This document shows positions 4,944 through 12,818 of a stretch of 12,818 nt of DNA, piece after piece. The notes below the pieces were generated by a model. It did no database searches, was not told the origin of the DNA, and saw only the letters and a list, made by a program, of their open reading frames with translations. How positions within the stretch are numbered: the stretch's first letter is position 1; every line of letters starts with the position of its first letter. This DNA is from a virus, in UHGV virus genome UHGV-0342252; one strand, written 5' to 3'. The position numbers and the translations under genes are program-made.

Positions 4944-4976
4944 GCCCTTTTTCAGGGCTGGGATGTGTAAGAGCGG
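4944..4976 (-). promoter_or_regulatory. nutR (boxA + boxB), with the rho-dependent tR1 region expected between it and cII
   Basis: Minus strand reads CGCTCTTACACATCCCAGCCCTGAAAAAGGGC: boxA CGCTCTTA (4975..4968) and boxB hairpin GCCCTGAAAAAGGGC (4958..4944), just downstream of the cro-like stop. Confidence 0.85.
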
Positions 4977-6032: not shown

Positions 6033-6095
6033 ACACGTGTTGTGATAAAAACAATCACATTTCGTGTTGACAGCACGAACACAATTTGTGATTAT
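6033..6095 (+). promoter_or_regulatory. oL / pL: three operator-like sites and the leftward early promoter
   Basis: -35 TTGACA (6067..6072), 17-bp spacer, -10 GATTAT (6090..6095). Three sites with the same CAC-N5-GTG core as oR (6033..6046, 6055..6068, 6079..6092) overlap the promoter elements. Confidence 0.75.
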
Positions 6096-6134
6096 CTAGC
6101 CATCAGCAGGACGCACTGACCACCATGAAGGTGA

Positions 6135-6165
6135 CGCTCTTAAAAATTAAGCCCTGAAGAAGGGC
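6135..6165 (+). promoter_or_regulatory. nutL (boxA + boxB)
   Basis: CGCTCTTAA (6135..6143) and GCCCTGAAGAAGGGC (6151..6165), matching lambda nutL as recalled. Confidence 0.85.
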
Positions 6166-6433
6166 AGCATTCAAAGCAGAAGGCTTTGGGGTGTGGTGAA
6201 GCCAGCTAGTCACTGGCAAGTGCTTACCTACTGTTGAGCGGTGAAGCGCTCCCAACGCTAGCAATAGCGTGGACGAGATGGGGAGCCGCGGGCGATAAGG
6301 CCGCCATAACGCGCACGTTGTCGCATGGAAAAATCGCTGGGGTGCCGGTTATACCCCTCCGAATGAGACTCAACAAGCTGGAGCTAGACTACCAGCCACC
6401 ACACCACCAAAGCTAACTGACAGGAGAATGACC

Positions 6434-6565
6434 ATGAATAACGAAGCGCTTAAAGAAATGATTGCGAAACTCCTTGAGGACGCACGCCGAATTCAAGAAG
6501 TGGAGCCAAACGCAGGGACACAATCACGTATTGATGAAGCGATGAAGTTGCTCAAAGGAGAATAA
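6434..6565 (+). CDS. small ORF (43 aa) immediately upstream of N
   Basis: SD AGGAG (6422..6426) 7 nt before the ATG; stop TAA lies between the SD and ATG of N. Product MNNEALKEMIAKLLEDARRIQEVEPNAGTQSRIDEAMKLLKGE, predicted helical. Below the ORF-track size cutoff. Confidence 0.45.
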   Translation: MNNEALKEMIAKLLEDARRIQEVEPNAGTQSRIDEAMKLLKGE

Positions 6566-6566
6566 A

Positions 6567-6893
6567 ATGGATGCACAAGCACGCCGCCGCGAACGTCGCG
6601 CAGAGAAACAGGCTCAATGGAAAGCAGCAAATCCCCTGTTGGTTGGGGTAAGCGCAAAACCAGTTAACCGCCCTATTCTCTCGCTGAATCACAAACCGAA
6701 ATCACGAGTAGAAAGCGCACTGAATCCGATAGACCTTACGGTGCTGGCTGAATACCACGAACAGATTGAAAGCAACCTGCAACGTATTGAGCGCAAGAAT
6801 CAGCGCACATGGTACAGCAAGCCACGCAGTGAAATGGGTGTGACTTGTGTTGGTCGCCAGAAAATGAAATTAGGCAGCAAGCCACTTATTTGA
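6567..6893 (+). CDS. N: antitermination protein N (108 aa)
   Basis: MDAQARRRERRAEKQAQWKAANPLLVGVSAKPVNRPILSLN... matches lambda N from memory over almost its whole length, including the Arg-rich boxB-binding N-terminus; cognate nutL and nutR boxB sites are present. Confidence 0.95.
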   Translation: MDAQARRRERRAEKQAQWKAANPLLVGVSAKPVNRPILSLNHKPKSRVESALNPIDLTVLAEYHEQIESNLQRIERKNQRTWYSKPRSEMGVTCVGRQKMKLGSKPLI

Positions 6894-6901
6894 GGTGAGA
6901 T

Positions 6902-7372
6902 ATGACAAAATCATGGAGCGTACCTTTTCCTGAATCAGAAACTGAACATGATGGAATGCCTGTTTTCTGGAGATTCCAGGCGACAGTTGAAGAAGATGGA
7001 ATCAAAATATTCGCACTTCAATATATAGCTTTTCATCAGACAGAGCATTATGCATGGTTGGTTCCTGCGCATTGGATTGTTAATTTTAAACCAGCACCAA
7101 ATCAGTGGTTACAGGAATGGAAACAAAAGAGAAATAGATATGCAATTAAGAAAGTAGCAAAAAATGCAGAAAGATCTTTTGCATTCCCAACGAAGAAACT
7201 TGCCATTGAAAGTTTATTGCGCCGGAAGAAATACCATTTAATGAGAATCAAACAAGATTTGGCTGTTGTATCAACTCTTGTTGATGGGATGAAGAATATT
7301 GATACATCAACACCAGATATTGAATATAACTTTGGACACAACCAAGAAACAGAAAATTGGGTATTTTATTAG
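6902..7372 (+). CDS. hypothetical protein (156 aa) encoded by an A+T-rich insert after N
   Basis: SD GAGGTGAG directly after the N stop, ATG 8 nt downstream. Coding sequence is visibly A+T-richer than N and cIII (judged by eye, not computed). No motif recognised. Confidence 0.65.
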   Translation: MTKSWSVPFPESETEHDGMPVFWRFQATVEEDGIKIFALQYIAFHQTEHYAWLVPAHWIVNFKPAPNQWLQEWKQKRNRYAIKKVAKNAERSFAFPTKKLAIESLLRRKKYHLMRIKQDLAVVSTLVDGMKNIDTSTPDIEYNFGHNQETENWVFY

Positions 7373-7476
7373 TACAAATAAGCACTGTGTATTCATTCCA
7401 ACGAGTGAATACACGGAGCAATGTCGCTCGTAACTAAACAGGAGCCGACTTGTTCTGATTATTGGAAATCTTCTTT

Positions 7477-7503
7477 GCCCTCCAGTGTGAGGGCAATTTT
7501 TTT
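7477..7503 (+). terminator. intrinsic terminator between the 156-aa gene and the coiled-coil gene (tL1-like position)
   Basis: GCCCTC-CAGTGT-GAGGGC hairpin (7477..7494) followed by AATTTTTTT (7495..7503). Confidence 0.65.
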
Positions 7504-7515
7504 GACGGAGGATAT

Positions 7516-8484
7516 ATGAGTGAAGTAACAGATTTAGTTGTTATTGAAAAAGCAAATGCAATGACTGTATTTCAGTCTGCCGACCAGATTGAAGAAATCC
7601 TTCAAAAGGTTGAACGTGAAGTTATGTCCTTTGTGCCTGATATCACAACGGCAAAGGGCAGAAAGGAGATCGCTTCTCTGGCGTATAAAGTTGCGCAGAC
7701 GAAAACATATCTCGATGGTCTTGGAAAAGACCTTGTTGCTGAACTGAAGGAAATTCCAAAGCTAATTGATGCCAACCGCAAGACAGTGCGTGATCGCCTT
7801 GATGAGCTGAAATCCAAGGCACGCCAGCCTCTTACTGATTATGAGGAAGAACAGGCGCGTATTAAAGCCGAAGAAGAAGCTAAGGCAGCAGCTGAAGCTC
7901 TCGCAAAGCAAATTGAGTCTGACCATGAAATAGCGATTTTGATGGATCGCGAATTTGACCGCCAAAGAGAAGAGGCAAGACTCAAAGCGGAGCAGGAAAA
8001 GCGAGAGCATGAAGAACGCTTAAAAAGAGAAGCTGAAGAGAAAGCCAGAGCAGAAGCCGAAGCAAAGGCAAAAGCCGAAATTGAAGCAGCAGCAAGGCGA
8101 GAGGCAGAAGCTAAGGCCGCAGCGGAACGTGCAGAGCGTGAACGCATTGAAGCCGAGCAACGAGCACAGCGCGAAGCAAAAGAGGCAGCAGAACGAGCTG
8201 AAAGAGAAAAGCAGGCAGCAATTGAAGCAGAACGCAGAAAAGCACAGGAGGAGGCTGAACGAATCCGTCGCGAGGCTGAAGCAAAAGAGCAAGCCAGAAT
8301 AGCAGAAGAAAAAAGAATCAAGGACGAAGAAGAGCGCAGAGCAAAGGATAAAGCTCACCGGAAAGAAGTAAATAACAAAATACTTGCTGACCTTATCAAG
8401 GTTGGCGCATCAGAAGATGTTGCTAAAAATATCATAACAGCCATCGTAAAAGGCGAAGTATTCGCAACAAAAATAACCTACTAA
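7516..8484 (+). CDS. coiled-coil protein with long Glu/Ala/Lys/Arg-rich helical domain (322 aa), function unknown
   Basis: Start set at ATG 7516 (SD GGAGGA, downstream of the terminator) rather than the ORF-track start 7462, which lies upstream of the terminator hairpin. About 110-aa N-terminal domain, about 175 aa of EAEAKAKAE / ERAERE-type repeats, short C-terminal domain. Confidence 0.7.
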   Translation: MSEVTDLVVIEKANAMTVFQSADQIEEILQKVEREVMSFVPDITTAKGRKEIASLAYKVAQTKTYLDGLGKDLVAELKEIPKLIDANRKTVRDRLDELKSKARQPLTDYEEEQARIKAEEEAKAAAEALAKQIESDHEIAILMDREFDRQREEARLKAEQEKREHEERLKREAEEKARAEAEAKAKAEIEAAARREAEAKAAAERAERERIEAEQRAQREAKEAAERAEREKQAAIEAERRKAQEEAERIRREAEAKEQARIAEEKRIKDEEERRAKDKAHRKEVNNKILADLIKVGASEDVAKNIITAIVKGEVFATKITY

Positions 8485-12213: not shown

Positions 12214-12818
12214 ATGAGCACTATTACCAAAGAATTAACCAAAGAGCAGTTACAGCAAATTATCGAAACTGACCACGTTCAATGCGGTGAGGCTTCTTCG
12301 CTGGCGCGTATCGCGCTGGCATCGCTCGAAGCGGAGCCTGTGGGTGAGGTTTCCGAGCAGCGTGATGGGCTGGTTATGGACGGCATGGTAGATCTCGGTG
12401 GAGCATCAACTCACCGAATTATTAAGGGAGCTAGCAAGATGAAACGGTTGCCGCTTGGCACGAAGTTTTACACCGCCCCGCTAGCGCCGGTATCTGTGCC
12501 TGATGCGATGGAAATGGATGATGACTTTGACAGCGCGTTTGAACACGGAAAAGCTGTCGGCTGGAACGCCTATCGCGCCGCCATGCTTCAGGCCGAACCC
12601 GTAAGTAATCGTGATGAGTTGCCGTTGGACTATCTGCAAGGTCACAAAGACGGCCTTGAATGGGCGGCACAATTGGCAGAAGCCAATCATCCGCAAACAG
12701 GTGACTGGTTGTACGACGACCCAATCGATCTTGCCAGGGCGATTCGCAAAGGTCCGGATATGCCTACTGTTCAGGGTGGCAGCTCTCCGGTAACTCCGGA
12801 TGGTTGGATAAGCTGTAG
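12214..12818 (+). CDS. hypothetical protein, 3'-truncated by the window end (at least 201 codons)
   Basis: ATG 12214 with SD GAGGGA, 2 nt after the upstream stop; frame stays open to the window edge by manual translation (MSTITKELTKEQLQQIIETDH...). Missing from the ORF track because it has no stop. Confidence 0.5.
   Translation, partial: MSTITKELTKEQLQQIIETDHVQCGEASSLARIALASLEAEPVGEVSEQRDGLVMDGMVDLGGASTHRIIKGASKMKRLPLGTKFYTAPLAPVSVPDAMEMDDDFDSAFEHGKAVGWNAYRAAMLQAEPVSNRDELPLDYLQGHKDGLEWAAQLAEANHPQTGDWLYDDPIDLARAIRKGPDMPTVQGGSSPVTPDGWISC

Follow-up and report, generated by a model that had tools for sequence, protein, structure and literature searches.

HK97 gp45, 933W L0079, phi24B vb_24B_11c, Min27 ORF20 and Stx2-86 orf57 are the same protein, encoded in each of these phages in the place after the antiterminator gene N and followed by a hairpin and a terminator. 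Searches of the literature on L0079, vb_24B_11c, phrog_1636, HK97 gp45, HK97 counter-defence, lambdoid hotspots and Stk/HK97 returned no statement on the gene and no experimental datum on any member of the family, and the gene is absent from the supplements of one accessory-gene screen. In phage lambda the corresponding interval carries other accessory cargo. Lambda Ral (66 aa) is a small, soluble and non-essential accessory protein encoded on the PL strand, whereas lambda SieB is encoded on the opposite strand and harbours hydrophobic segments. Finally, a P22 gp17-like protein (termed “superinfection exclusion protein” in PA28 and “gp17” in H-19B) represents neighbouring early-left cargo; it is the product of a separate 103-aa gene located downstream of gp45 in PA28 and H-19B and is not homologous to gp45.

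The window, i.e., the whole stretch of 12,818 nucleotides of the virus genome UHGV-0342252 analysed here, carries a member of the gp45 family in an early-left operon of the lambda type. Compared with the described set of phages nothing material differs, and the upstream N allele and the downstream gene vary by mosaicism. The relevant features are, from left to right:

6067-6095, plus strand: PL-like promoter, TTGACA-17-GATTAT, TG-extended
6135-6165, plus strand: nutL, with boxA CGCTCTTA at 6135-6142 and boxB GCCCTGAAGAAGGGC at 6151-6165
6428-6565, plus strand: 45-codon open reading frame between nutL and N, phrog_32391 (E = 4e-34), with a good ribosome-binding site
6567-6893, plus strand: antiterminator N of the lambda type, 108 aa, phrog_271 (E = 2.4e-26), 92% DNA identity to lambda N
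6840-6901, plus strand: 62-nt left flank travelling with the gene of interest and carrying its Shine-Dalgarno sequence (alignment A3)
6902-7372, plus strand: gene of interest, ATG start, TAG stop, 156 codons, HK97 gp45 / 933W L0079 / phrog_1636 family
7382-7419, plus strand: hairpin with a perfect 14-bp stem (7385-7398 / 7403-7416) and the loop CAAC, without a U-tract
7475-7503, plus strand: intrinsic-terminator-like site, 8-bp stem (7475-7496) with five G-C pairs, 6-nt loop and T7 tail
7516-8484, plus strand: 322-aa open reading frame directly after the terminator, phrog_1376 (unknown function), no Pfam match

The family assignment is based on the best profile match, phrog_1636 (“unknown function”), which aligns residues 1-156 of the protein with profile positions 1-156 (E = 5.4e-112). 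Over all 156 residues the protein is 98.7-100% identical to HK97 gp45 (98.7%), 933W L0079 (99.4%), phi24B vb_24B_11c, Min27 ORF20, Stx2-86 orf57 and, as found by tblastn, an unannotated open reading frame of H-19B. Judged by these matches, the gene is an already catalogued open reading frame in a typical lambdoid mosaic context, and not a discovery.

The gene begins right behind N. The N stop codon TGA occupies positions 6891-6893 and is followed by an 8-nt spacer (GGTGAGAT) and the ATG at 6902; a Shine-Dalgarno sequence, GAGGTGA, overlaps the N stop codon and lies 5-6 nt upstream of the ATG. These coordinates bear out the earlier note on this DNA, which had described a 156-codon gene starting 8 nt past the N stop with its own Shine-Dalgarno sequence. 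The gene had also been called A+T-rich and compositionally distinct from its flanks, and computation agrees: its GC content is 0.357 and its GC3 is 0.274, as compared to 0.41-0.52 and 0.34-0.60, respectively, for the remaining 17 genes. It coincides with the minimum-GC stretch of 471 nt in the whole window (z = -3.3; window mean 0.476), and none of 11406 non-overlapping windows fell below 0.41 GC. A flank-like composition, named beforehand as the result that would speak against the claim, was not seen, and the gene is compositionally foreign to the window. At the right end of the window (12300-12818) the GC content is 0.55-0.58, and no tRNA gene is present anywhere in the window.

Direct alignment with lambda yields an anchor on either side of the gene. 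Positions 6556-6868 correspond to lambda N (35372-35062, 92%), and positions 7382-7502 correspond to lambda 34045-33925 (99.2%), a block that is located between ral and ea10 and which we take to be part of the “tL2 cluster between bet and ral” of Luk and Szybalski. The lambda interval between both anchors comprises approximately 1.0 kb and contains sieB (on the opposite strand), orf28 and ral. Given the N anchor on one side and the hairpin/terminator anchor on the other, the gene therefore replaces the sieB-orf28-ral block of lambda. The assignment to the lambda ral/sieB slot made in the earlier note is thus literally correct. Its wording “inserted directly after N” holds for the position of the gene, yet the event was not a simple insertion, since relative to lambda approximately 1.0 kb are replaced by 0.5 kb.

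Upstream of N, the window is 100% identical to lambda over positions 6101-6195 (lambda 35583-35489). The PL-like site is the only promoter-like site found on the plus strand between cI and the gene, and no sigma-70-like consensus was found between PL and the ATG of the gene; these promoter and terminator scans employ simple consensus matching, and weak or non-sigma-70 promoters, as well as Rho-dependent terminators, lie outside their reach. The boxB sequence GCCCTGAAGAAGGGC is an exact match (0.03 expected by chance), and a nutR counterpart is located on the other strand at 4944-4975. In line with the lambda “Nutl” annotation, we take these boxA/boxB motifs to be the lambda nut elements. In a protein comparison, the C-terminal ~22 residues of N diverge from lambda N. 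The stop codon of the 45-codon open reading frame precedes the N start by 1 nt, and this reading frame was seen in only one other fetched locus (L010). The early-left region of PA28 also has a 45-aa open reading frame, and tblastn with the reading frame at 6428-6565 gave no match in PA28.

Downstream of the gene, both structures that the earlier note had pointed out were recovered, namely a 14-bp stem (7385-7416) and a terminator-like stem (7475-7496) with a T7 tail. The 156-nt region 3' of the gene folds at -51.8 kcal/mol (z = -5.2), none of 200 shuffled sequences folded as well, and no Rfam match was found in the hairpin/terminator region. Of the 86 loci matching the 3' end of the gene, 69 have the hairpin 12 nt past the stop codon, and its distance to the terminator is fixed at 90 nt even where extra genes are inserted upstream. 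It could serve as an RNA processing or stability element or as a protein-binding site. Just past the hairpin, a boxA-like sequence (CGCTCGTA, 7425-7432) occurs, which is within chance expectation. The site at 7475-7496 is the only terminator-like site detected by the scan on the plus strand between nutL and 7700 and the first one downstream of PL; in lambda, the terminator tL1 after N is Rho-dependent. Terminator variants that differ in the loop only are found at the same position in L010 and 933W, and the HK97 record annotates a putative terminator after gene 45.

The end of the gene also overlaps a weak antisense promoter-like site (7391-7363, minus strand; TACACA-17-TAAAAT, 9/12), which covers the stop codon and the hairpin and points into the gene. 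The same sequence is found in L010 (5490-5462) and L001 (3552-3524), where it is conserved because the entire surrounding block is conserved, and the region contains no more promoter-like sites of this kind than expected by chance. The 322-aa open reading frame behind the terminator contains a central stretch of about 150 residues composed almost purely of E, A, K and R, and the AT skew reaches up to 0.75. The composition of this stretch suggests a charged single helix or a coiled coil, and the annotation “TolA protein” of the reading frame in one phage record is probably a low-complexity misannotation.

Held against the concept of a moron in the sense of Hendrix and Juhala, the gene has the atypical composition, no promoter of its own in the consensus scan, and a terminator-like site at its 3' side, which is the same element as the one after ral in lambda. 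As lambda has the same element after ral, the terminator is probably part of the operon backbone rather than of the gene. These features bear on the possibility that the gene product is a superinfection-exclusion or abortive-infection factor, which is expressed from the prophage, made in the lysogen and blocks heterologous phages in the manner of SieB or Rex. Consistent with such a role, the same slot in lambda holds sieB, the strongly A+T-rich composition with a terminator at the end is moron-like, and the gene is very common in E. coli prophages, with up to four copies per genome. However, the gene and PL share a strand and no promoter-like site separates PL from the ATG, whereas sieB of lambda is encoded on the other strand, and the gene-bearing phage 933W also has Stk, which is located in a separate, lysogen-expressed block adjoining cI. 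Taking into account the properties of the protein and its relatives outlined below, we consider this role improbable.

The regions flanking the gene are mosaic. Across 85 loci, homology to the window breaks off on the left at 6813, 6840/41 or 6886, and on the right at 7372, 7500-7502 or 7515-7519. Upstream of the gene at least three unrelated N alleles occur (in 42, 13 and 9 loci), and downstream more than eight different genes are found among the 85 loci. The 62-nt flank at 6840-6901 is identical in 933W, HK97, PA28 and Huey (compare L001 3005-3062 and L088 4943-5000). In the window and in Huey it codes for the final 17 N residues, but in 933W and HK97 it is noncoding and comes after the stop codon of another N allele. 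Since the same nucleotides are coding in the former and noncoding in the latter, the flank looks like a relic of the 3' end of a lambda-type N gene. Judging from this comparison, the window likely shows the ancestral N-gp45 junction, and the relic flank looks like the mark of a recombination joint for swaps of N alleles.

By tblastn, lambda Ral matched a separate gene in only one of the 85 gene-bearing loci, and a lambda-type sieB was found in none of them. Therefore, the interval between N and the terminator constitutes an exchangeable cargo slot, of which gp45 is one alternative occupant. More complex cargo also occurs: in locus L008 (3678-6100), as well as in L034 and approximately eight further IMG/VR loci, the slot contains, in this order, an N-like gene, a 75-aa gene, a gene for a 230-aa Nmad5-domain protein (“nucleotide modification associated domain 5”, PF18757, E = 3e-72), gp45, a 97-aa gene and a 62-aa gene, followed by the same hairpin and terminator. 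A Pectobacterium prophage has its orthologue at another place in the same operon, directly before xis-int.

The gene is widespread. It is matched by 88 of 50,697 phage records (tblastn), and megablast located it in approximately 11% (598 of 5426) of the complete E. coli genomes, with at most four copies per genome; it is intact in at least 593 genomes. An identical protein is encoded on at least 1000 contigs, invariably under the name “hypothetical” or “prophage protein”. Of the 834 genomic places, six fall on plasmid-classed records of ~30-39 kb from E. coli 0H24-0H26, NZ_CP081786.1, NZ_CP081694.1 and NZ_CP081778.1 among them, and the chromosomes of those strains have an identical copy of the gene. 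The plasmid-classed records could represent phage genomes, excised or circular, that the assembly turned into plasmids. Beyond E. coli, orthologues with 57-85% identity occur in Pectobacterium, Cronobacter, Brenneria, Rosenbergiella and Symbiopectobacterium. An exhaustive profile search retrieved 88 representatives at E <= 1e-3, most of which are 130-155 aa in length and match residues ~20-140.

Sequence variation within the family reflects constraint at the protein level. Among 23 orthologues from five genera, 40 residues are invariant, and compared to relatives 63-64% identical pN is ~0.21 versus a saturated pS of ~0.78. For the two closest diverged copies, those of the phages Bas81 and NX263, dN/dS is 0.13. 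In 85 near-identical copies, from which misaligned sequences were excluded by a Hamming filter, 24 synonymous variants stand against 8 nonsynonymous ones. Hence, the reading frame is a genuine gene and evolves under purifying selection. A passenger without current function, be it selfish or decaying, would fit the atypical composition (GC3 27%) and the fact that no phenotype has ever been reported; yet the strong purifying selection, the 40 residues invariant in 23 orthologues, a confident fold and the intact reading frame in at least 593 genomes render it extremely improbable.

The protein has a mass of 18.6 kDa and a pI of 9.0, contains no cysteine and seven tryptophans, and combines a basic centre (residues 61-131, net charge +13) with acidic ends. 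A KD19 scan detected no transmembrane segment, the hydropathy maximum being 0.56 versus 1.73 for lambda SieB. With close orthologues only, AlphaFold2 reached a pLDDT of 65; with the 73-sequence alignment A2 it reached a pLDDT of 95.2 and a pTM of 0.82. The AlphaFold2 model comprises a long three-stranded antiparallel sheet (strands 19-30, 33-46 and 50-55), a short strand at 83-86, short helices at 56-59 and 66-74 as well as at 76-84 (the latter in the first model with pLDDT 65), a long C-terminal helix of 33 residues (98-130) and an ordered C-terminal tail. Among the 73 diverse members, positions 24, 83, 84, 87 and 109 are K or R in at least 79% of the sequences (R24, K83, K84, K87 and K109 in the window), an aromatic residue is conserved at 23, 41, 52, 93, 95 and 155, and G33, E/Q46, T47 and A101 are conserved as well.

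The earlier note had recognised no motif in the protein, and broader searches came to the same result. No catalytic motif is recognisable in the protein, Pfam gave only sub-threshold noise (Tmem26, zf-H2C2) and nothing consistent for 73 family members, and NCBIfam gave no match. In PADLOC-DB 2.0 the lone match to a defence family, Cas1_II (E = 0.0097, 13 bits, 46 residues), is noise. Searches of the PDB by sequence with profiles A1 and A2 (best E 0.23-0.7) returned coiled-coil noise throughout, a PDB fold search with the AlphaFold2 model revealed no solved structural relative, and the solved anti-defence proteins in the PDB matched neither in sequence nor in fold. The BFVD database provided 13 fold matches, every one of which is an uncharacterised phage protein. 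Confident homology to a characterised protein of mundane function, which would have contradicted the note, did not emerge from the profile (Pfam, NCBIfam, phrog), PADLOC or PDB sequence and fold searches. A resemblance of the motif “RFAFxTKxxA” to the AP2 / integrase arm-binding domain was rejected by hhalign, and the apparent fusion proteins P0056 (940 aa) and P0081 (444 aa) proved to be repeat or low-complexity artefacts.

Relatives of the protein are also encoded by phages of other types. The T1-like Escherichia phage TanjaMuster_Bas81, the 97 annotated features of which include neither an integrase nor a repressor, harbours a 63%-identical homologue. The homologue heads a five-gene operon (L098 4001-6270), in which it is followed by a ParB-HTH protein, two small open reading frames and a RusA-like resolvase. 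The operon lies inside the structural-gene block in the opposite orientation, and the same arrangement is found in Salmonella phage NX263. A bridging member, P0067, matches HK97 gp45 as well as genes of the Schitoviridae phages RG-2014 and JWAlpha and of the Ackermannviridae phage phiEa2809; in RG-2014 and phiEa2809 these members sit among nucleotide-metabolism genes. Schitoviridae and Ackermannviridae are obligately lytic. The distant relatives in likely virulent phages are 20-30% identical and may differ in function. In locus L086 a relative is located downstream of RecT/YqaJ, and in a Vibrio phage a relative adjoins a RecE-annotated gene, upstream of a gene for a Rha-domain protein. Across nine contexts no conserved partner gene and no informative fusion were found.

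These neighbourhoods are relevant for the view that the protein is directed at the phage itself rather than against host defences, namely as a DNA- or RNA-binding developmental accessory such as a recombination or replication helper, a nucleoid-type protein or a transcription modulator. The conserved basic patch and the pI of 9 are compatible with this view, and so is the position of relatives beside recombination or DNA-handling genes in L086, the Vibrio phage, Bas81, RG-2014 and phiEa2809. On the other hand, no neighbour is consistent across lineages, and the gene is absent from lambda and, with matches in just 88 of 50,697 phage records, from the majority of lambdoid phages, which leaves no room for a core role in development. 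We regard a purely phage-directed role of this kind as somewhat unlikely.

The relatives likewise bear on exclusion. Homologues are present in phages without lysogeny genes, although virulent phages also encode exclusion proteins, and the protein of the window has no membrane segment and no PADLOC family. Compared to SieB, there is no sequence similarity, no family match, no membrane segment and no promoter-like site of its own. Based on these comparisons a lysogen-expressed exclusion factor appears unlikely, because the gene lies on the PL strand without a promoter-like site of its own, its product is soluble, and relatives occur in phages that lack lysogeny genes or belong to virulent families. 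The proposal of the earlier note that the gene is a candidate for an uncharacterised prophage-encoded function accordingly stands insofar as no characterised homologue was found; the gene itself was already known (HK97 gp45, present in ~11% of complete E. coli genomes), and expression in the lysogen as an exclusion factor is the less probable alternative.

The best reading of the gene is that of a ral-like, PL-driven early accessory gene, i.e., non-essential and horizontally exchanged cargo. By position, strand and accessory status Ral appears to be the closest functional analogue: it shares the slot with gp45 and is almost never co-resident with it. Ral and gp45 differ in length (66 versus 156 aa) and lack sequence similarity, and none of the Pfam, PHROG or NCBIfam searches matched the protein to Ral. 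By analogy to Ral, we tentatively propose, as a real possibility, that gp45 is produced along with N when infection or induction sets in and functions as a lytic-phase binder, which through its conserved basic patch counters a host barrier or conditions the host or the DNA. In this scheme, the gene and N would be co-transcribed from PL as soon as infection or induction begins, and the gene would be silent in the repressed prophage, which is the pattern of ral and not of sieB. The protein would then act in lytic growth as a binder rather than an enzyme. The conserved residues R24, K83, K84, K87 and K109 would contact a polyanion, which may be nucleic acid or an acidic protein of the host, and by this contact gp45 would most likely overcome a host barrier or prepare the host or the DNA in some other way for phage development. 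The basic patch could instead be structural or bind a small ligand. The remainder of the probability falls to explanations other than those considered here.

Extending the ral-like reading to the whole family, gp45 and its relatives might form an unrecognised class of proteins for counter-defence or host takeover whose fold has no counterpart in the PDB. Such proteins would be among the first products of infection, common to lambdoid/Stx, T1-like and N4-like phages and Ackermannviridae, and functionally interchangeable with ral in the N-proximal cargo slot. This broader proposal is unlikely to hold.

Taken by itself, gp45 is an ordinary catalogued gene, yet this “hypothetical protein” now comes with a sharper, testable hypothesis. 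The present analysis adds the exact slot relative to lambda, the near-absence of ral and sieB from gp45-bearing loci, the apparent remnant of an N 3' end, a confident fold model without a solved relative and the homologues in virulent phages. In lambdoid and Shiga-toxin prophages of E. coli, few genes without an assigned function are as widespread as this one, and Ral and SieB, the lambda occupants of its slot, are classic factors of defence and counter-defence. If gp45 indeed has a counter-defence or host-modulating function, it would provide a new fold and mechanism for that field and could matter for the host range of Stx phages and the biology of their induction. Moreover, the interval between N and the terminator would then be a place to mine for such genes, as sister phages carry the Nmad5-domain gene and other unknowns there.
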